A stretch of DNA of 55,890 bases, filler included, from Sphacelaria rigidula (GCA_964200075.2; 6 parts of 6 records of this genome joined end to end with filler, not necessarily neighbours in it), one strand, 5' to 3'; counted from the first letter of the whole stretch, positions 4,601 to 37,328 are shown. Program-made: numbers and translations. Notes: generated by a model not told the origin, from the letters alone.

Positions 4601-6648
4601 GCAGTCACGGCATCTTCTGTTTTTGCTTATACTGAGAACGCGATGCTCCCACGGAAATCTGGTCCCCCAGGCCAAATTTACCAGAGGTTCTTTCCCACGA
4701 CCAACTGAGAAACGGTTTTGGATGGGAAGACGAGGAAACAACAACAACAACTGCTTGCTGCTGTCCTGTCCCCAAGGAGAGGCTACCTCCATCTAGGAGT
4801 ATCAAGCTGCGTGTGCTCCGCGAAGCCGGACTCTACGACTGAAGAACCTACACAGCCCACGGTAGCCAATCTCCCGTAGGCGCATGGTGTATTTATTTAT
4901 CTGGCGGCGAACGTGCTCTCCACGACGCTTGTTACTTCAACTTTGTATCCCTGTACTGCACGAGGCCGTGGTCCCACGGGACCAACCCTCTTTTCTCTTT
5001 CCCGACATGCAGTTGCCTGACGACATGTTTTTGTCGAGCACTCGATCAAAAGTCCCATAGCCTGCCGATACTCCGACGGAATGCTCATTTTCTTGCTTGC
5101 TGTTTCACCGCGGGATACAATATTTCGTGCTTGATTCCTTCTGGACTGTGAGGCGTTCAGGAATCTTGATTACAGGAGCACTCGTGCATCCACAAAGTAC
5201 AAAACGGAAAGGAGTCTGCGGTAGCACTCCTCGGATACAAAAATGGACAGTGAACGTAGTCAACAGGATTAGCTGCTGTTCTGCGGTGGATTTGTGGTTG
5301 CAACATTTGTTGCTGTGGTTTGGTGTTGAATATGCGAAAAATCTGTCTTGCGGGCGGGGATGCAAATACTCGCAGCTGCTTTGCGGTCAGGGTGATTGCA
5401 TGACGCCGTTGCACAGGAATGGACAAGTAGCTCACGATTTACAGTGGGCGATTCCCACAACTGCATGAATAGGGCAAACTACGCTTATGACAAGGCGACA
5501 GGTTGTTGGAATGGAAAGGCAACGTAGTGCAGGACATGCGTCTGTCACTCCTCGCGTAGCTCTCATTGCTGATCATAGCTTAACCCTCTCGATGTCACTC
5601 ATCCTCATCGCCTCTGTCGTCCCTCCTCACCTCCCTCAACACGCACAGGTCTCTACATTCTCAACTCGCACACAAGGCTCTGGAAGCAGAATCCGAATCG
5701 GACAGCTCGGCCCCCAGTGCACTGCATGACCCCGCTGACACCCCGGCGAGATTCCCCCCTGATACCGCAAGTGCAACCACGGGGGCGGTTCTCAGCAGCA
5801 GCAGCAACATCAGCACCAACCTCGAAGATCCTGCAGTGAATCCAGCAGAAAATGGCCGGAATGTCGCCAACCCGAACTCAGGGTGCTGCAGTAGTAATAA
5901 AGCAGGCGTTAGGGAAAAGTGCGTGATGCAGCGCGGGCGAGAAGATGGGTTGGATGTGATGAAAACGGAGGACCCGGGGGTGATCGGGGTGGTTGACGTT
6001 GCTGCTCAGGTGCCCAGCGGGATGTGGGGGGAGGAGACACGGTCTGTCGTATCTTTTCCCGTGATTGCTACCAGCGCTAGCATTAATGCAGATTCGACCA
6101 TCAGCGTAGATTCTCAGGCTGGTGATGGATCTGAAGTCGGCGCTGGTACCACCAGTGTCGGGTCGGGGGCAATATCTTTTGGTGTTCCTGCTGACGAAAA
6201 TTATCGTCCGCAAACATGTAACGATGCGCACGGCGTGGATGTTGGCAGCGGCATGGCCGCGCGAGGGGGTACAGCCGATGCGACGAGCACAACTATGTCG
6301 CAGGAAATACCCTCCGCGGGTTCCGACGATGCGTTGGAGAGGGTGCCCCCCTCGATGAAAAGCGATGGCGTCGATGGTTCGAACGCCGGTGCTAATATAA
6401 CTTCCCGAGCGGACGCCCAGGGAGGTCTGCCCGGCGAGGCGTTAGGCGGTGGTGACGGAGCGATCTCGGCAGAATGTGCGGACGGTGATGATCGGTCTGA
6501 TCACAGCAGCTTGATGGATGCGGTAGATGCGCTTATGGACAATGGGTACATGGACAACTTCGAGGACCTGTATGGAGGGAAGGAAGGGGATGGCGATGGA
6601 TTGATGCCGCTTGAAGTAGATTTTGCTGCAGGCGACATTTCATTGTGA
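1655..6648 (+). CDS. 5'-partial spliced gene; C-terminal region resembling a brown-algal expanded family (often Zn2Cys6 zinc-cluster transcription factors), followed by a long acidic low-complexity tail
   Basis: Exons 1655-1810, 4426-4596 and 5649-6648 (stop TGA) with AG/GT boundaries; both introns are phase 2 and join in frame: ..PEVRYGVGGLWFNSLVAYANVLDGAIDVAYEKILCCADVMESNPGILRFPAW|GHLGHCVLAVLASTCSCTRYERIRLAYNTVIDASKPRAPPMEEWEGMHQICDALFCR|SLHSQLAHK... Family assignment is from recalled motif similarity (GxGGL..N, PG..RF..W.H..H, PP.EEW.G...CD...CR); no zinc cluster is present in the window. The acceptor at 1655 is the least certain boundary. Confidence 0.7.
3107..3234 (-). mobile_element. 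3' fragment of the same SINE
   Basis: Reverse complement of the SINE 3' end: (GT)n, cccatttattctggac..ggtctacacctttcggtgtatgtgggcgcaccagc. Confidence 0.7.
3750..3919. mobile_element. hAT-type MITE, near-palindromic
   Basis: TIR cacaccatggacgatatatggtcaatag / ctattgaccatatattgtccaaggtgtg; TSD aaacattt / aaacatct. Confidence 0.75.
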
Positions 6649-7854
6649 TAAATAAATAGAAGAACTTGTCATCTACGCCCTTAACTGTTTTCGTTCGTGG
6701 ACGTCGCGTTCACCTTCCCCCGTTGTTTCGTGTGTTTTTGTATTCGTCTAGTTTTAGCGTGCCTTGGGTCGCCAGTCTCTTGTCGTGTGCAACATATAGG
6801 GCTGGTACGCGTATATTTTCTGTCGTTACTGCTGTTTCGCCTGTGGGGTCTGGGATATACAGATGTCAAAATGGTATGAGAACATGTACTGTTGTGTACT
6901 GTGTACTGTGTACTGTGTACTGCGTCGGGGTTATGGATTAATACGGGCTCTCTTGGCTCCGCCTCTTTCAAGCGGAAGGTATCGACAGTTGCTGCACACC
7001 ATCCAGTGTATGCCCGTCGTAGAGTACCATGCGTCAGGTATCGGGTTGAAGTCGATACGAGCTTGCCGCTGTCGCATCGTAGAGTAAATTTTGTATAATA
7101 CAACCCCCACCCCCCCGCATCCATGGGGTGCTGATATTTCGACAGATGGGCTCTCCACATGGTACCAACCACAAGCAACCAGGCTTCAATCACTGTCGCA
7201 CATTTAGTGATCCCCGAGAAACCGGTCCATGGTCACCAGGCACACAAAACGGACGGCAAGACCAGTCGCTAGGACCCTCAAAAGCCGTGATTTGCGATGC
7301 GATTGATTTTGGAGACACGTTCCAGGTACGACCTTGCAAATCTCAAGGCTCTCTCAAACAGGAGGGGAAGTGCAGGCACATGTTTTCCTTCTCTGTTCAC
7401 GGCGAGTTTTTCACCAGTAAGAGATCGGCCCAATGATACGCCACCATATTTCCTTTACACCGTTCGTCCTTTCAGAGCCATCGCCACAACACTCGCCTAC
7501 TATTTGGGAGAGTCAAGAACGAGATGGCTTCAGCTGTTCCGATCCCATGGCACAAGTCAGGCATATCGCATCAGTGGCAATATGACCCCCCGCGTGACAA
7601 CACTTCCGTTTCGCCTGGTGTGCATGCTTGAGGCCTGTTGCTTCATGCGTTCAGAGACGGGAATGCAAGCGTGGGCCAAAGAGGGACCATTCGTGAGCAG
7701 CAATGCATCATCTTATGACGTCGGCCCAGGAACGAGGTTAGAGCACTCGGCCCCTGGTTGCCACCTTTCCCGTGACGCATTTCGTCCTGCTCAGTGTCGT
7801 ACGCCTTTCGTCTCGCTTGTTGTCCAACTCCGTATTTATACCACTACAGAAGAC

Positions 7855-8192
7855 GGTCGTCCTGGTGGCTCAGTTGGTAACCTCAAAACCTTTTGACGGT
7901 TGCAACGTGGGTTCACATCTCGGTGAAGTCACAAGATCTGGACTAGTTTGCACACCAAATTCGAAAAAAATCGACTTCACGGTCGACGACGGAAAGGGAC
8001 TGCTGAACCCCTCTCGCGATTAAAAATAAAGGAAAGCACCGCTGAAGGAACGTGGGGTACCAAAAACAAATGGGAAAAAAAGCTCCTGTGTTGACCTTCC
8101 TACTACTGTGTGACCCCGGCTGGTGCGCCCACATATACCGAAATGTGTAGACCGGCACCCAGAATTGATGGGACGACAACACACACACACAC
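7855..8192 (+). mobile_element. tRNA-derived SINE, full-length-like copy
   Basis: A-box TGGCTCAGTTGG (7866-7877), B-box-like GGTTCACATCT (~7910), body shared with other copies, (CA)n tail. Confidence 0.75.
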
Positions 8193-8465
8193 ATGCCCAA
8201 CAATAGAGAGCGATCATGCATGTCGCGGGTACATAAAGTTCGACCTCACGGCCGTCGAGGGAAAGGGAACGTTGAACCCTTCCCGCGGAAAAAAAAGGAA
8301 GGCAATCACCGCACGCAGAAGGGAGGTGGAGTCCTATTAATTAAAAAAACTGAAACGGAGAAAACGCCCGTGTTAACCTTCCTTTTGGTGACCGCAGCTG
8401 ATGCGCCCACAAATACCGGAAGGTGTAGACTGGCACCCAGAACAGATGGGATGACAACACACACA
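8193..8465 (+). mobile_element. 5'-truncated copy of the same SINE, in tandem with the previous copy
   Basis: Shares atgcccaaca..gagagcga, gtgtagac.ggcacccagaa..gatggga and the CA tail with 14055-14320. Confidence 0.7.
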
Positions 8466-9232: not shown

Positions 9233-9332
9233 NNNNNNNNNNNNNNNNNNNNNNNNNNNNNNNNNNNNNNNNNNNNTTAATTAATTAANNNNNNNNNNNN
9301 NNNNNNNNNNNNNNNNNNNNNNNNNNNNNNNN
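9233..9332. other. artificial contig linker
   Basis: 44 N + TTAATTAATTAA (stops in all six frames) + 44 N. Confidence 0.97.
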
Positions 9333-10006
9333 CTACTTTGTTTTCTCACGTTCTCACGCTTACCACGGTGGGAATCATATATTACGAAGAAAAACCCCAA
9401 CGCATCGGGAATCGGACCCTCGTTCTCTCCACCCTAGTGGCGACAGTCGGACCATTACACCACCGGGGCGCGGCAATCTGGCATCTGATATTCGGCAAGG
9501 AACAATAATGACAACACATATTTTGTAGACACAATGGCGGGTCCTTGATATAAGGCATCCCATGATATGGCGAGCTTAGCGATAAGACACGTGGTTTCGG
9601 TTTGTCAATTAAGTTTATATAAGGGATAACCCATGTACTTCCATGTTCTGTGCACGTAGTGTGTAAGTGCCGCCTTCAATCGCTATCAGTTTTAATTAAA
9701 ATTATTACTACCCGATCCCCTACTTTCATTCCACAAGGTGTCATATGTCTGCTTCCTTTTTCCTCGTTTCATATTTTGAAAACAACGGTTGAAGATGGGC
9801 TACGCCCGCGCGCCTCGCCTCGCGTCGCTCGTATATGAAACTATTCCGAAGTGAAGCCAATTCACACGCATTGTACAAGAGCAAGGGCAGCGTATTTCAC
9901 CACGTTGTCTGACATCGGAACCTGAGGTGGACTGTTGCCAACACCTTTTCTCATACCTATGTACCCCTCGCCATTCAATCTCTTGAGCGACAGACAACAT
10001 TGAAGC

Positions 10007-10118
10007 CCTCTCTGCCCCCATTGCGGGTTGAGAGTTCGGTAAGTACGAGAATAGTAAAAGTAATGGAACAAACCAGAGCTCGAGTCACAGCCTCGTGAGA
10101 GAGGGGCTGATGAAGCCA
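10007..10118 (+). repeat. short dispersed repeat (second copy at ~16295-16405)
   Basis: Shared ctctctgccccc..gcggg/acggg..gag, gtacgag.atagt, tcacagcctcgtga. Confidence 0.55.
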
Positions 10119-10202
10119 CGATAAAGTTTGAGCGAGAGAGTGACGTGTGTGTGTAGAGATATCAACACATTTGTGCACTGATCTATTTTTGACCCCACAC
10201 AG

Positions 10203-13200
10203 GATTTCCACATGGACCTGATGGACACTATCGATGGTCTCCTATTGCCTGGAGGCAGGGCCATTTTGATACAACCGCAGCGGGGGGGCACGGCTGACCT
10301 CTTCGTGCAGCGGCTTTCGGATGCAAACTGCGGCGTTGCGGGGGGAGCTGGCGGCAGTGATGGCGATGGGGAAGCAGGAACGGGAGGAGCAGAGACGGTG
10401 CGGCGACCTGGACGACTTCGAGCCCGTCTTGTGGAGCGGTATGTGTCTTGTTGTTGCTGCCGCTGCCGCTGCTACTGATGTACCGTCTGTGGGCGATAGT
10501 GAGAGTTTGAACCACCCCAACCTCAATGGTACGTGGGTGGACGTTTGAAATTTGGAGTCAAAGATCACCAGAGTGCAACGGTGTTTGTTCAGGGGACTCC
10601 TTTCGCTGAACCACGCCAACCTCACCGGTACATGAGTGACCCGCTTTGTACCTGACTGAAGATGATGAGGGAGAGGCGCGCGGCGGGGTTGACACGGAAC
10701 CGTTATACCCCTTTCTATTCCTGTAGTTTACCTTACAACTTCAATGTTGTTTGCTTACGGTGCTCAGTCCAGATTCTGTCACGTCGGTGGGTTTCTATCT
10801 CCCCTAGACGTTCCTTATCTTCCGACCTCTCTGGTTCCGTCTTTTCTCAGTTCTTCCTTTCCTATCACCCTTTTGTTTTGTTTTGTTTGTTTTGGATGCT
10901 GCATCAGTGTTTGTGGCTCTCTCCTCGGAGCTCGCAAATGAGAGTCATGTCCATATTGTGTGGTTCACGAACAGCTGAGTCGCGACCTCCGTCCACCGCC
11001 GTCATACATATGTACGAAGTATATAAAATTCCACTTCGGGAGGATGGTACGCCCCCCCCGGGGGTGACGCAAGTCGAAAATATATGATTAAGAGAGGCTG
11101 TTCTATCTCAATGTACAGTAGTGACCGCGGCTATACAAAACATCGCATGTGCTATCGGATATCGTTCGGAAATATAGGAATTCGGACGGAGGCCGGCGGC
11201 GGAACCGTCGGGATAGAACATGTGTGGTATTCCCGAGGTGCCCGAGTGCGAAGTAGCTCGTATGCCACAAAGACATGACAGCGGGAGGCACTTACCGAAA
11301 AATTGGAATGCGTGGAACATTATTGGCATGCTCTTTGTACATCAGTGTGGCTTCCACATCACCGGGCCTTCTTTTAAAACAGGGTGATTGTTCTTTGCTG
11401 CAAAACTTCCCTGTGCTGCCGTGCTGCCGTGCTGCCGTGCTGCTGTGCCTTGTTCAACTTGCCAACGGCCTATTGCACGGTCTTGTATTTTCTGGTGACT
11501 AAGGCCACGGCAATGTTCGATTGTTTCCAATTGCTCTGCTCTCATGTTCACGTGACATTGGCGGCATAACCGGTGTAATCGTGCTCCCAAATGAACGAGA
11601 ACGCGGCAAAGAGAAGCACGGGGAAAAACCACCCCGCCAAAAGTAGTCCTGTTTGAAGATTTCCATGATCTTCAACAGGCTTTATTTGTGGTTCAGGTTC
11701 TTGCTGCAAGTTTTCCATGATCCTGAAAAGGCTCTTGCGGTTCAGGATCGACACCCCGCGGAAAAGGGCCAGTTTGAGCGACTTTCGGTGGCCAGAACAC
11801 GCGCCACAGGTATCAGATGACACCCAAGCGTGAACGGTAATGTACCGCTGAGCCTTCCCGGTGCGCTGCAAAAGGAAGCGCGGTAAAAAATACCTTGCCG
11901 CCAGAGGAAACTCGGCAAAAGTGGTAAACAATGTGAAATGATACATGCACATATATTACACGACCTCCATACCTGAAGCCACGCGGCACGGGCGGACCTT
12001 TCTTTCTTTCTTTTTTAGCCGGTCCGGCACTTGATCTGTAAGGGAAAAAGAGCCACCCTCTTCCCCGTGACCGACACCGATCCATCGACAGCATCCGCGG
12101 TCTCATCTGTTTTCTCCGCCGTCCGTCCCCCGAGCGACTTCTTAATCCCACTACCCGAAGAACTGGCACGTGTGGTGCCCCCGCCGCTGCCGTCACTGAT
12201 GCTATTGACACTATTTTCCCAAACACGTACCCAGCATACTACTACAGTGTACATCGCCTGACACTTGTAAGCCGTCCGTTGACTGTGGCCCGCCGGGGAT
12301 ACGTCGTGGGATATTTCTGTATCCATACCTGTATGCCTACACCGCAGTCGACGTGCAACCATAGTGCGGTCAAACACACTTCTCACATGTCCGATTCTAC
12401 TCACTAATGCCAAGTAATTCCACTATGCCAGTGTATTGCGGGGCCCCGCCACAGTGCGGTCATGCCGTGCTAGCGACTATGTACACTATGCTAGCACTTC
12501 CTCTGTACTGTATCGGGGTATGCAGCATATCAGCCCCCCCCCCCCCCCCCCCCCCCCCCAACCCACACCCCACCACACCCCCCCTCTTTTTCCGCCTCAC
12601 CAAACCCTTCGNNNNNNNNNNGGTGACCCCCGCCTTTCGTCTTTTTACACTATTCTCCCCCCCCCTCTTTACTTTTTTGGGGATTGCAGCAAATTACCCC
12701 CCCCCCCCCCCCCCTTCCGCAAAATACCATCCCGAGGTGATCAGCTTCTTGGGTCTCCAATAAGTCATCACTTGGGCGTCGTAGATTTTCCACCGTATCC
12801 CAAGTACAATCATAGTGACTTCTCCAATGGAGATATGGTACAAACGGTATCTACCTGGCTTATGCAGAATGTCATACTGTTTTTTTGTCAGACCACGAGT
12901 CGTTCTGAGAAATATCGAGTGCGTGTGTGTGCACGCGCGAACCAAGGATGAGTGTGGAGACCACATATTTATGAGCGTAATGGCATCCAAATACACATGC
13001 GAGCCGGAGAAGTAGTCGCCGGAACGGGGTCTGCCAGTGACACACATGAGTGGACCCGAAACGTTCAAGCCTGTGAAACTTGACCTTCGGCAACCTAGGC
13101 AAACCGGGTCTCCGGTACAAGAGCCCAAAACAACGGGGTCACCGCATGAACCCTGGTGGAACGTAGCCGGTACTACTGCACCATCTCGTTCACTTCTTCT

Positions 13201-16200
13201 TCTCCTTGCCTACCATCGGTCACGGCCGCATCCTTGCCTAAATGACAAGGAAGAGAATCACGCCTCGCTCTGGAGATCCTTCGACAGCAGGGTACGACAA
13301 CGTTCTTCTTCGGGACGCATCACTCTGCTGCCTCACCCCTAGCGAAGCCTAGTTTACATGAGAACCGAAAGTGGCGGCGAAAAAGGCTCGAAGCTATACG
13401 CGTAATCCTTTTCGTCGGAGGAAGGTTGCACTGCTTTTCACACCATGGACATGGATCATGTTGTCACATTAAGTGTACTGCGTACAGCATCGACTATTGC
13501 GTCTATTGCAGTAGACCAAATATTCCATACTGTACGCCGTACAATTTTTGATAATGCAATCTATTGTTCAGGGTGTGCTGCTTTTCACCGCCGGTTTTGG
13601 TTCTAAACTAAACCGGTTACGGCCGCGTGCTGTGGGTTCTCGGGGGGGGGAGGGGAGAGGCGTACTCATTTGTTCCTTGCCTCAGTCGTTTGACCGTTGA
13701 CGACGCATCCCTGTCGAAACGGAGCACTTCGGCGGATAGAGGAAAGTTGAAAAAAAATATGTGTTGATGGATTTTTGGCGAAAAAGTCCAACGAGAGACT
13801 TGGGAAATTAAAAAAATCGCGGTCCCCCTCCCCGGCCCTCCGAGTTTGAGGGAACGTGCTGCTGCAGAACTTGAAGATTTATGTCAGGAGTATTCCCGCT
13901 ATTCTTTCGAGTACCCAACGTATCGAAGAAGCAAATTATATGACACACACTCATACCCCGGTCGCCCCGGTGGCTCAGTTGGTAACCTCGAAACCTTCTG
14001 ACGGTTGGGTCGTGGACTCAAATCTCGGAGCGATCTGGGAGTTTTTCTCGCACCATGCCCAACAGTGGAGAGCGACTATGTCGTAGGTACACAAAACTCG
14101 ACTTGACGGTCGGCGAGGGACAGGAACTGCTGAACTCCTCTCGCGATAAAAAATAAAAGCAAGCGCCGCAGAAGGGAGGTGGAGTACTAAAATTCAAAGA
14201 AGAAAAAACTCCTGTGTTGACCTTCCTCGTGTGTGACCCCGGCTAGTGCGCCCACACATACCGAAAGGTGTAGACCGGTGTCCAGAATAGATGGGACGAC
14301 AACACACGACACACACACTCATGTCATGCACGTACATCATATAATCACTGACACACACACACACACGTACGGACGCGCGTGCGCATATGCTTCAGGTATG
14401 ACGAGCGAATCTCGGCGATGCACGAATGCTACTTGCAACGAACCGAAAACACAAGCTCGGTAGTCGGGGATAAAGACGGAGCGGGGAGCAGATGCGGGCG
14501 GGGATACGTGCCCGATCGACACCTACCGCTTCTTGTGGAAATCGTTGCCGAGACTGAGGGGCCGCTCAACAACGCCTCAGAGGGTATGGACAGTGGTGGT
14601 GGTGAAGGTGGTGACAAACTCGAGTGGTTGGACGACATGTTCCCGCTCGCGAACGATCAAGATGAAAGGGAACAACACACGTGCGATGGTGTCGACGACG
14701 GCGACCAATCGGACGATCAGAAACCGCGGAGTGATTGTTGTACTGTTTTTGTCGCCTCAGACGAGCAACGTTCAACCGCTACGGAAATCATAACGTCCGA
14801 GGCGGTAAAACACTCTGTCGTGGTGGAAGAGCGTCCTGTGGACAACGGCAGTTCTGTGGAGACTTCCCCTCATGACATCATATGCCCAGAACGTTCCGGA
14901 GAATGCGCTGCAGGACGTTCTTCTTCTCTTCCTCCTCCTCCTTCTGCTGCTTCTGGCAGTGGTAGGTGCGAGGTTGGATCAAGAGAAGACCAACGTCCAG
15001 ACCACAGGATGGAGGGCGTGTACGAATCTCTTGCCGAGAGGTTGCGGATGAAGCTGCGCTCTAGAACCAGAACCAGCGAGGCTGGAGTGGCCGGAGAGGG
15101 AGTCAACGAGCAACTGTGGCTCGGAATCGCTGGTCCTCCCGGGTCTGGCAAGACTACGCTGGCGGTAGGTGTCATTATTTAGTCGTTGGCCCGGTGGGCA
15201 TCGTCCGGTCGGGCTTAGGACCGTCGTACATACGCGAGGATCTAAGTAGCTCCCAAGAGCTAGTAGCTCCCAAGAGCTACCTCGGCTTGCTTTTTTAAGT
15301 GAATCTGAGTCATCCTTCGGGGGGAACGTAAACACATCGTTGGGTTATTGGCTTCCCTGACCCCTTGATTTCTCCGCAGTGAGGGGTGATGTGTATCATG
15401 TTGATGATCGCATCCGTATTCACAGCACTTGAGAAATTGCCGTTGCATGAATCAGCTTCCGATGGGAGCCCAGAAGAAAAAGACAGTGTAGCACCGGTGC
15501 TTTGACACCAACGGTGCGCTGTGTACCATGCCTAGGGCGATGGATTATGACTGCTTTTGGTGCCATGTAGGTGTCTACAGTACTGTTTCGGGGTAGGTTC
15601 TTTTCCATCGCCCCCTAAATAGCACCCCTGGGATATCAGTTTGCAGACTCCGAAACCGTATCGCCGGCGGGTGCTATATGCCGTAAATTACGATACTTGT
15701 CCACAGAGACATTCCGAGAAATAGTCCACAAGGAAAAAATATTCTAGCACCCCCGGTATGACTCGAACCTCCTCCCTGTATGCGATGATGGTGTATATCA
15801 TAGGAACGTTGTTCACCACAACTGGCCAAGAAGTCATGATGAGAAACGTATGAATTATGTTGGCATCATACCGATAACTCAAGTACCTTTAGTACGGGGT
15901 ACATCATTGCATATCTTCCCCCGAAAAATACCACCCCCGCCTTACATGATTTCAGGTGCCGAACCTCGTCATGTGGAGGTGATATGTACCACGACCCACC
16001 TCATCTTCTCGGTAAGCTTGTGCTACCTATGTACGGGCGGTACAAAGCTGTCTAAATTGCAAGCGGGTTGCGAAGTCAGTAGCGTTCGCCGTTTGCTAGG
16101 GCATAAGAAGGACAGGATATGATTGTTGAATCTGGACCGTGAACACCCACAGCGATCTACAGGGTACTCCTGCTGCTGCTGCTGCTGCTGCTGTTGCTGT

Positions 16201-18165
16201 TGTTTTAGTCTCCGAGGATCGGCCCACCTTCCTTCCGGCACTTCGTGCAGTATAGTAACAATGAGTAACGCTGATGTGGTTATTAGTTAACCTCCCTCTC
16301 TGCCCCCTGACGGGATGAGGATTGGGTACGAGGATAGTGAAGGGAGCCAGGGCTCAGACCAGGGCTCAGATCACAGCCTCGTGAAGGAGGGGGCGGTGAG
16401 GTCACACAGAATTGTTTAGAGGGGGAAATTACGTAAAAAACGTCCATCAAAGGTGTACTGAACGATCGAACCGATAATGCTTTCTTGTGAAAACAAATCT
16501 CGGTGGCAACTTCTATCTTGACCAAAACGCACTCCCCTCACCCGTTCTCTTCCGTACCCATCGCTGGAAATTTTTCTAGTGGTCAGCAGCTCGTGATGCA
16601 GCACGTAGCCACCTCCCCCCCCCACTCCTCTCCCGTAGAAGACAAGGAGTGATACGAGTAGTCTCTCCGCCCCGCCTCCTCCTCCCCTGCTGCGCGCACC
16701 TCCACGACATTTTCTCCTCCTCGCGTCTACTCGCGGCGCAATCGATGAATGCAGGCGGAATTATGCAAACGAGTCTCCTCGGAGTTTCCCGCCGTATGTG
16801 TGCCCATGGACGGATACCACCTCTACAGGTCAGTTCGTTCCTTCACAGTGCGTTTCAATGGTTATTGTAACGATACCCTTTTTTCTGCTGTTTTTGTGAT
16901 GCTGTGGTTTTTAATCCGTCCTCGGGAAGAATCCGTTGTCTTGACGTGCCGCCGATCGAATCTGCACTCGCCCACCGCGTGGAATCTCGTTGAATTTTCC
17001 TTTTGCTTCTCACTCCCCCTCATATTCTCCACTGCGACAACCAGACTCTGCTCGAATGGACTGGATGCGTCCGGGCCCGAGCCCGCACCCGTCGGCCCTG
17101 GCTGGCCATTGTTTAACAAGCTAGACCACCGACGCGCGGCGGTGACACATCGAAACGTACACGATGAACTTGCAGCTCTGCTTCTCGAGCGTCAAGTTTA
17201 CCTGGGCAGTACTCGCGTATATTGTATTCGTCGCCGTGCTTTCCTCTTGAAACATGGTGCGTAACGGTTTTTTGCACTGCATGAATAACGTAGACCATCG
17301 ATGTAACGCTGTTCCCTCTTGAAGCAGACTCTCCCATTGCCATGTGACTCAAAATAAAGTATTTTACTTATCCCTGAGTACACATACCGCTTTTCGTACG
17401 TAAAATGTGTTCAAGATCAACCGGAATGTATCGCCGCTGCCCCCCCCTCCCCCCGGTCTCGTCTCCTCCTGGATCGGTTTCCGATTGTTTTGAAATACTT
17501 CTTGGATTTGTTTTTTCCAAAATGACGAGGAAAAAGATTGTGAATGATTTGAGCTGCACGTTCTCGACTCGCAAGCTAGTATGTGGATACCGTGAAGCAT
17601 CCCGAGAAAGCTTGCTTACTGCCGCCGGGGTGCACAATGGATGTTTCACAAGAGTCAGTTTTGCGTGTGAATGTCTTGAACCGTTTCTCATTTTTGGGGG
17701 GAATTTTTTTCGACAGTTTCGACTTGTTTTTTGTTATTTCTGAATGTCCGTGAAGTCATATATATATACTATCATAGTACTTCTGGCGCGAGCTTTGAGG
17801 TCATGAAGGACCCCGAGGAGGCTGGCTTCAGGGGGAGGTTCACACGGGACGTTTGAACAGGAACCAGTTCTGGTTCATGAGTTCTCTATCTTCTCGAGCA
17901 GATGTTGACAAGATTGAGTTCACAACGAAAGGTTTCACACACAAGTGTAAAATCTTTTACGGCTTAATAATTCATGGTTGACACTTTCAGGCGCGAGCTA
18001 GATGCCATGACGGATCCTGCAGAGGCTTACCGCAGGCGGGGTGCGCACTGGACGTTCAACGGAGACCGGTTCTTGTCTGAGGTGAAGCAGGCCAGGCGGA
18101 ACCGGTTCGGTTCTTTCCCGGGGTTCGATCACGCCGTGGGAGATCCTGTTGAGGGAGAAATCCAG
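10203..18165 (+). CDS. partial spliced gene: calmodulin-lysine N-methyltransferase-like C-terminus fused to a P-loop kinase of the phosphoribulokinase/uridine kinase (YFH7/YggC-like) family
   Basis: Exons 10203-10438, 14396-15164, 16755-16828 and 17991-18165; all AG/GT, intron phases 2, 0, 2, joining in one frame. Both ends run off the contig (no start or stop seen). Confidence 0.8.
13439..13577. mobile_element. hAT-type MITE (CACACC..GGTGTG termini)
   Basis: Termini cacaccatggaca / tgttcagggtgtg; perfect 8-bp TSD ctgctttt on both sides. Confidence 0.8.
13960..14320 (+). mobile_element. tRNA-derived SINE, full-length-like copy (intronic)
   Basis: ggtcgccccggtggctcagttggtaacctcgaaaccttctgacggtt...ctcaaatctcgg head, conserved body, (CA)n tail. 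Confidence 0.8.
15009..18165 (+). other. P-loop kinase domain, PRK/uridine kinase/YFH7-like
   Basis: Walker A LGIAGPPGSGKTTLA, then VPMDGYHLYRRELD, RRGAHWTF, and FPGFDHAVGDPVEGEI; all are hallmark motifs of this family. Confidence 0.9.
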
Positions 18166-18505
18166 GTACTACGCATTCCACCAATGTTCACTTTATTTCC
18201 GTAGGTGACAAAAAGCAGATCTCCTCCCGTGATCAGCTTTTCGAAGCTGATTTCTCGAGGAGTCTGCACTCCCGACGATCCAAATCTTCATGTTGGAAAT
18301 ATCTTCATAGTATTCTTTGCTGGGACCATTTTGGAATCCAATTATATCTGAAATCGTGTGTGAAACCGAGTTGCGCAGTGTCATCAACGATACTGAAAGC
18401 AAGCGATTAGCCCAAAAGGAAGTTGAACGACGAAACAATTTGGTGTCCTAGTAAGCATTCCTCTACATGGACACAGAATAATGTCCGTATTTTCCAAGCC
18501 AGAGC

Positions 18506-18564
18506 GGTCGCCCCGGTGGCTCAGTTGGTAACCTCGTAACCTTCTGATGGTTGAGTTGGGGGGT
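18506..18564 (+). mobile_element. SINE head cut by the contig end
   Basis: ggtcgccccggtggctcagttggtaacctcgtaaccttctgatggtt, nearly identical to 13960 onward. Confidence 0.75.
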
Positions 18565-18664
18565 NNNNNNNNNNNNNNNNNNNNNNNNNNNNNNNNNNNN
18601 NNNNNNNNTTAATTAATTAANNNNNNNNNNNNNNNNNNNNNNNNNNNNNNNNNNNNNNNNNNNN
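18565..18664. other. artificial contig linker
   Basis: Identical 100-nt N/TTAATTAATTAA/N spacer. Confidence 0.97.
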
Positions 18665-27896: not shown

Positions 27897-27996
27897 NNNN
27901 NNNNNNNNNNNNNNNNNNNNNNNNNNNNNNNNNNNNNNNNTTAATTAATTAANNNNNNNNNNNNNNNNNNNNNNNNNNNNNNNNNNNNNNNNNNNN
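27897..27996. other. artificial contig linker
   Basis: Identical 100-nt spacer. Confidence 0.97.
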
Positions 27997-37228: not shown

Positions 37229-37328
37229 NNNNNNNNNNNNNNNNNNNNNNNNNNNNNNNNNNNNNNNNNNNNTTAATTAATTAANNNNNNNNNNNNNNNN
37301 NNNNNNNNNNNNNNNNNNNNNNNNNNNN
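37229..37328. other. artificial contig linker
   Basis: Identical 100-nt spacer. Confidence 0.97.

Follow-up and report, generated by a model that had tools for sequence, protein, structure and literature searches.

Does a single gene join a calmodulin-lysine methyltransferase (CaMKMT) to a small-molecule kinase in one reading frame, as the first-pass annotation of this locus had proposed? The stretch of DNA analysed here (the window, 55890 nt) consists of six 9232-nt pieces separated by spacers of the form N44-TTAATTAATTAA-N44, and neighbouring pieces need not adjoin in the genome. The fusion gene sits in piece 2 (9333-18564); a 10-N scaffold gap interrupts this piece at 12612-12621. Judging from the sequence and its relatives, we found that piece 2 very probably holds the middle four exons of one brown-algal (or close-relative) gene that encodes a single methyltransferase-kinase polypeptide, of which the piece includes ~130 C-terminal amino acids (aa) from the methyltransferase and ~135 N-terminal aa from the kinase. 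The frame is continuous from one domain to the other and is conserved across many lineages, a relative carries it in a spliced full-length open reading frame (ORF), and both domains can be assigned to a family and a fold.

The joint between the two domains lies inside a 769-nt stop-free exon (14396-15164), which has the borders, frame and motif positions that had been claimed for it: the CaMKMT-type tail starts with YDERISAMH from 14397 and closes with YVPDRHLPLLVEIV, which ends at 14546, a linker of ~150 aa follows, and the Walker A motif GPPGSGKTT lies at 15132-15158. In the coding frame this exon has 0 stops, as compared to 4-10 in each of the five other frames, and the longest stop-to-stop frame of the 9.2-kb piece is 14352-15182 (276 aa; the runner-up has 177 aa). 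When the 444-nt linker (14547-14990) was subjected to mononucleotide shuffling, only 229 of 200000 shuffles remained open. The phases of the four exons agree: 10203-10438 leaves two codon bases that base 14396 completes, a codon ends at 15164 and the next begins at 16755, and the two bases left at 16828 are completed by 17991. In an independent assembly, we found a 254-aa ORF (P0001) with 98% identity over the junction exon and without a stop or indel; it differs from the window by five substitutions, every one inside the linker.

Is the junction found in other genomes? We aligned the window exon with P0001-P0003 and searched the resulting junction profile against 1.84 billion representative proteins. 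There were 31 matches at E ≤ 0.001, 3 of which were the profile's own inputs and 28 of which were new. Eight of the new matches (P0004-P0009, P0012 and P0014) have a methyltransferase tail, a divergent linker and a kinase start in one frame; inputs included, 11 representatives (50% identity) have both ends in one frame. The tail follows the pattern R[YF]D..W.MH ... Y.PD.H.PLL.E and the kinase start the pattern RPD..M..VY..LAER ... QLW....G.PGSGKTT, and P0014 stops short of Walker A. Most matches end in intron read-through just past TTLAV and are therefore genomic ORFs. The rest of the new matches comprise either just a kinase N-terminus or unrelated proteins of P-loop or repeat type. We inspected P0013, P0015, P0018 and P0029; for P0027, P0028, P0030 and P0031 the check was by motif only, with none found. 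Both ends are held by 19 of the 46 chains compared, with linkers of 110-160 aa. None of these 19 chains has an in-frame stop between the domains, and all 19 have a Trp motif (W-x-x-W; the window's lineage has WLDD) at 28-39 residues past the PLLxE end of the methyltransferase. Because the linker diverges in sequence and length, never gains a stop and retains this short motif, we take it to be translated. The first-pass annotation had also held that neither the choice of splice sites nor the spacers could have produced the junction; this is borne out by its position in one gap-free exon and by the same open frame in P0001 and the 11 representatives.

The spliced form of the gene is represented by P0034, the closest full-length relative, a 916-aa protein on a 3984-nt contig that belongs to the 90% cluster of P0002. 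Its cluster-mates P0002, P0032 and P0033 are genomic ORFs bounded by introns: P0032 breaks off at ...LVER, and the other two enter an intron after TTLA. P0034 joins ...LVER to YD... and ...TTLA to.E.C..., matching the splice sites predicted in the window, and its C-terminus (...IIDSL) is common to the annotated brown-algal proteins. We read P0034 as transcript-derived because 3984 nt cannot contain introns of 4.0, 1.6 and 1.2 kb. In a tblastn comparison of P0034 with the window, residues 393-474 matched exon 10203-10438 (58.5% identity, E 1.75e-17), residues 473-742 were matched in turn, residues 743-766 matched kinase exon 2 (87.5% identity) and residues 765-825 matched kinase exon 3 (85% identity, E 3.6e-28). 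Residues 1-392 and 826-916 had no credible tblastn match anywhere in the window. Thus, the window has the gene's middle only (~residues 393-825 of 916), and of the whole two-domain protein that had been proposed, the junction is present here and the remainder of both domains lies outside. At the other end of P0034, residues ~50-140 belong to an N-terminal insertion of ~140 aa that is absent from the Ectocarpales and Undaria proteins; it is modelled with strand-helix elements at low to moderate confidence, with a predicted local distance difference test (pLDDT) score of 35-65, and may be a lineage-specific extra module, whose counterpart in the window's gene falls outside the window.

Annotated fusions were recovered only with P0034 (residues 265-916) as the query, which found 6 proteins at E ≤ 0.001 among 7998 candidates. 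Both domains are present in 5 of the 6, namely in the proteins of Nemacystus decipiens (759 aa), Cladosiphon okamuranus (1530 aa, a model that reaches far past the fusion), Undaria pinnatifida (769 aa), Ectocarpus sp. 12 AP-2014 (717 aa, N-terminally short) and Scytosiphon promiscuus (538 aa), and the entire junction is kept in three of these five. With P0034 and five annotated brown-algal proteins carrying both domains, the proposed in-frame fusion of a CaMKMT-type methyltransferase to a YFH7/PRK-type kinase is supported. The sixth match, P0041 (533 aa), resembles CaMKMT but stands alone, its chain ending 25 residues past HPLLVV. In the Cladosiphon okamuranus models P0037 and P0044 (1530-1531 aa), the fusion occupies the first ~750 residues and is followed by a PF02622 domain, which is probably a neighbouring gene merged into the prediction.

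To which family does the methyltransferase belong? P0034 scores 45.7 bits against Pfam Methyltransf_16 (PF10294; cut-off 21) over residues 273-420, and its residues 265-431 match human CaMKMT in the PDB (4pwy, E 1.3e-26). Exon 10203-10438, which holds the end of the Methyltransf_16 core and a Gly-rich insertion, has 4pwy as its top PDB match when searched alone, at a weak E of 0.2. We modelled P0034 with AlphaFold2 (23-row alignment, mean pLDDT 57), and in a Foldseek search with this model 4pwy ranked second (TM 0.61). In the stretch homologous to the junction, the model has a helix (H476-494) and a strand (E519-527), with PLLVEIV as the final methyltransferase strand, and the linker (residues 530-679) has a pLDDT below 50 and is predicted to be disordered. 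The S-adenosylmethionine (SAM)-binding motif I, ELGAG..G, and TDGN / DCLFF are found in P0034, P0036, P0038 and P0039; the part of the gene that holds them is outside the window. CaMKMT, which trimethylates calmodulin Lys115 (PMC4527749, PMC3527508), shares the fold and family of the fusion's methyltransferase, as DNTGNV.VWP, ELG.GM..LAGL, TDGN and DCLF are common to P0034 and 4pwy, and both domains close with an H.PLL strand. In contrast to CaMKMT, the fusion chain runs on past this last strand into the linker and kinase, and its methyltransferase has long low-complexity insertions.

By analogy with the solved human relative, the methyltransferase probably trimethylates calmodulin Lys115. An alternative that we consider unlikely is that the fusion is real and that the target has shifted from calmodulin Lys115 to a different protein, perhaps the kinase in the same chain or a partner of that kinase. 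Methyltransf_16 enzymes have varied protein substrates (PMC10238732), and the brown-algal proteins contain long insertions that are absent from the solved human fragment; however, CaMKMT 4pwy is the sole methyltransferase among the three PDB chains that match P0034 at E ≤ 0.01 and is also the best methyltransferase fold match.

In the kinase part of the window, GPPGSGKTT is followed by VPMDGYH in 16755-16828 and by RRGAHWTF and FPGFDH in 17991-18165. These motifs align to 3c8u and 2ga8 through P0034, with the pattern of Walker A (G.PGSGK[ST]T), PMDG[YF]H and RRGA..TF preserved. Among PDB sequences, P0034 matches 3c8u (a putative kinase of a fructose transport system) at E 1.2e-20 and 2ga8 (yeast YFH7) at E 1.4e-13, and the window's kinase fragment alone matches 2ga8 weakly (E 0.0038). 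P0034 also matches NCBIfam NF006743 (PRK09270, nucleoside/nucleotide kinase family) at E 9.1e-40, and the stand-alone relative P0016 exceeds the Pfam PRK cut-off (26 bits vs 22). In the Foldseek search, 3c8u came first (E 1.2e-17, TM 0.84), YFH7 had a TM of 0.57, and PanK and uridine-cytidine kinases (UCK2) followed. The kinase part of the model has pLDDT values of 70-96 in 10-residue blocks, and the RPDxxM helix (H689-712, pLDDT ~94) is packed as the first kinase helix. Walker A, PMDGYH, RRGA..TF, FPGFDH and VEGNYLL are common to the fusion kinase and the FrcK/YFH7/PRK09270 family (3c8u; 2ga8/2gaa); the known members of that family are single-domain proteins, whereas the fusion carries its kinase as a domain at the C-terminus of a methyltransferase. 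We infer that both domains would be active, given that relatives retain intact SAM-binding and Walker A/PMDGYH/RRGA motifs and that the window itself retains those of the kinase. To our knowledge, no substrate has been assigned to YFH7. For FrcK, the nearest characterised relative, PMC10433430 reports that the family's substrate has not been identified even in bacteria.

The kinase had also been linked to nucleoside or cofactor phosphorylation, and by way of calmodulin to NAD kinase. In plants, methylation of calmodulin Lys115 alters the activation of NAD kinase. We found no support for the link proposed for the fusion kinase, which falls in the FrcK/YFH7 group and not with the zeta-toxin-type NADKc. 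The Zeta_toxin profile (PF06414) reached 18.8 bits as compared to a cut-off of 22.3 and covered only the P-loop (residues 192-238 of the Ectocarpus model P0011), and in P0034 it had no match at E ≤ 0.01. Among the Foldseek matches listed there were kinases of the FrcK, YFH7, PanK, uridine-kinase, YGR205w and glycerate-kinase types and no zeta toxin. NADKc is a calmodulin-dependent NAD kinase of the green lineage with a zeta-toxin-type kinase domain (10.1101/521658). It resembles the fusion in being a P-loop kinase that is tied functionally to calmodulin, as that source presents it (10.1101/521658), but the fusion kinase is of the FrcK/YFH7 type.

Several observations weigh against a single methyltransferase-kinase gene. 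The window's own exons had no Pfam match at E ≤ 1, because just ~130 C-terminal methyltransferase residues are present; in the profile scan that the first-pass annotation had suggested, Methyltransf_16 is above its cut-off for P0034. With window fragments below every Pfam threshold and only weakly matched in the PDB, the domains are named from full-length relatives. For the kinase, the NF006743 score of 136 bits is below the cut-off of 227 (a bacterial equivalog model), and Pfam PRK on P0011 gives 19.3 bits as compared to a cut-off of 22. The methyltransferase part of the AlphaFold2 model is only moderate, with 10-residue pLDDT blocks of 51-88. The linker has a GC content of 0.65/0.51/0.49 by codon position, and its third-position value (GC3) of 0.49 contrasts with 0.60-0.69 in the two kinase exons and the conserved stretches of the junction exon; GC3 is 0.56 in the methyltransferase exon (10203-10436), and the same position has 0.50-0.53 in four intron samples. 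Since the linker value is close to that of introns, its composition alone is no proof of coding. The transcript origin of P0034 is deduced from its 3984 nt and lack of introns and not from a statement by its source. Finally, gene models of the fusion locus disagree, as some are split, truncated or exon-skipping: part of the junction exon is missing from the Undaria and Scytosiphon models (P0038 and P0040), and P0011 (an NCBI model of 391 aa from Ectocarpus sp. CCAP 1310/34) begins within the linker and has the kinase only.

P0011, with its linker tail and kinase, is also the main support for a different product, a kinase-only mRNA or protein that would arise from an internal promoter or Met (RPDHRM, 15009), instead of or beside the fused protein. 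The RPDxxM Met is kept in all relatives, fused and stand-alone. We find this quite improbable. All 19 chains that hold both ends lack an in-frame stop between the domains, so the junction exon would offer no terminator for a methyltransferase made separately. Inside the stand-alone kinases P0017, P0022 and P0023, the RPDxxM helix lies 10-45 residues from the protein's own start, and the Met, being internal there, therefore looks structural rather than a start signal. In addition, the junction is crossed without a break in P0034 and three annotated models, and the linker retains its conserved motif. The chance is close to negligible that the fusion is an artefact of assembly or read-through, or a pseudogene in decay, with two neighbouring genes merely appearing joined, because, although this is draft sequence with a 10-N gap in a window concatenated from pieces, the junction lies inside one gap-free exon, it recurs, always open, in the 98%-identical assembly and in the 11 representatives, and the kinase catalytic motifs are intact in the window. 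Taken together, these data favour a fused methyltransferase-kinase gene.

All named carriers of the fusion are brown algae; in a raphidophyte the kinase stands alone, and in another organism the methyltransferase stands alone. The fusion thus looks specific to the brown-algal lineage, in agreement with the lineage-specific origin that had been suggested for it. The raphidophyte kinase is P0022, a complete 284-aa transcript ORF from Fibrocapsa japonica, and the stand-alone kinases P0016, P0017, P0022 and P0023 range from 284 to 351 aa. Within the fused gene, the 4-kb intron 10439-14395 is present in the window and in the P0034 lineage and is absent from P0003, P0005, P0006, P0008 and P0012, genomic ORFs in which QPQRGGT...RYD is read in one ORF; by sequence comparison, this is an intron gain or loss within the fused gene.

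Coordinates of the fusion gene and of other features of the window (positions counted from the first base of the window).
Feature	Position	Strand	Details
Methyltransferase exon	10203..10438	+	acceptor AG 10201-10202, donor GT 10439-10440; DFHMDL...ILIQPQRGGTADLF...RARLVER
Intron	10439..14395	+	10-N gap 12612-12621; dispersed repeat ~13959-14307
Junction exon	14396..15164	+	769 nt; acceptor AG 14394-14395, donor GT 15165-15166
Junction exon, part 1: methyltransferase C-terminal helix and last beta-strand	14396..14546	+	YDERISAMH...YVPDRHLPLLVEIV
Linker, ~148 aa, acidic, Ser-rich, predicted disordered	14547..14990	+	Trp motif LEWLDDMFPLANDQDE at 14619-14666
Kinase domain N-terminus	14991..15164	+	RPDHRMEGVYESLAERLRMKLR helix; Walker A GPPGSGKTT 15132-15158
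Kinase exon 2	16755..16828	+	AELCKRVSSEFPAVCVPMDGYHLY and 2 bases of a split codon; AG 16753-16754, GT 16829-16830
Kinase exon 3	17991..18165	+	RELDAMTDPAEAYRRRGAHWTFNG...FPGFDHAVGDPVEGEIQ; AG 17989-17990, GT 18166-18167
Intron start, to end of piece 2	18166..18564	+	spacer from 18565; last ~90 aa of the kinase outside the window
Dispersed repeat segments	7854-7923 / 13959-14028 / 18512-18536; 8107-8184 / 8385-8462 / 14230-14307	+	
Artificial spacers	9233-9332, 18565-18664, 27897-27996, 37229-37328, 46560-46659		genes cut at piece ends

Elsewhere in the window, we observed a dispersed repeat of a few hundred nt that is present in at least 3 copies on the + strand, with 86-91% identity between copies, and the acceptor of the junction exon lies less than 100 nt downstream of the end of one copy. 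The start of the repeat resembles a transfer RNA (tRNA) arm (GGTGGCTCAGTTGGT); an ARAGORN tRNA search of the window found 0 genes, and a tRNA-like origin of the repeat is thus not established. The repeat may be a short interspersed element (SINE)-like element. In piece 1, a 354-aa open frame (5584-6648, + strand) that is acidic, Ser/Gly/Ala-rich and far longer than the frames around it may be a coding exon of another gene.

How new is this architecture? Brown-algal gene fusions and fissions are reported to involve ~7% of genes, to have been frequent early in the lineage and to be enriched in signalling (10.1101/2024.02.19.579948). The fusion described here fits that class of composite genes; the main text of the same source does not name this pair and has the word 'calmodulin' 0 times, although its supplementary tables may (10.1101/2024.02.19.579948). 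In the published literature, we found no paper that describes this methyltransferase-kinase fusion; supplementary tables, which were outside the search, may list the orthogroup. The first-pass annotation had called the architecture unfamiliar, which holds in so far as no description was found, but the sequence is already public as unnamed proteins of five brown algae. What is new is the description of the architecture; with both families known and the fusion already deposited in public proteomes, this is not a new kind of system.

The product would be one polypeptide chain, roughly 700-900 aa long. A seven-beta-strand SAM-dependent lysine methyltransferase of the CaMKMT type would make up the N-terminal half, and the C-terminal ~230 aa would be a P-loop small-molecule kinase from the FrcK/YFH7 branch within the PRK/uridine-kinase/pantothenate-kinase group. 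Between them, the linker of 110-160 aa is predicted to be disordered and fast-evolving, with one conserved Trp-containing short motif. The fusion probably serves co-expression and co-localisation of the two activities, and it therefore predicts their joint use rather than the substrate of the kinase. A further step, which we offer as speculation with a low likelihood of being right, is the Rosetta-stone argument that the orphan FrcK/YFH7 kinase family, which is conserved in bacteria, yeast and algae, works in a calmodulin/Ca2+ pathway. In brown algae, calmodulin would then be captured by the methyltransferase domain and set beside the kinase, and the phosphorylation of a small metabolite would come under the control of Ca2+/calmodulin or its methylation state; in another version, the kinase would remove or provide a metabolite that is coupled to methylation. 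The Trp motif of the linker would be a docking or regulatory element.

For annotation of brown-algal genomes, the conflicting gene models at the fusion locus are a practical point. For the biology of these algae, a fusion common to Ectocarpales, Laminariales and the window's lineage points to a CaMKMT-type methyltransferase and an orphan P-loop kinase that are used together. Its value is that of a functional clue: it offers a concrete, testable lead for the orphan FrcK/YFH7 kinases as a family and for brown-algal Ca2+/calmodulin signalling.

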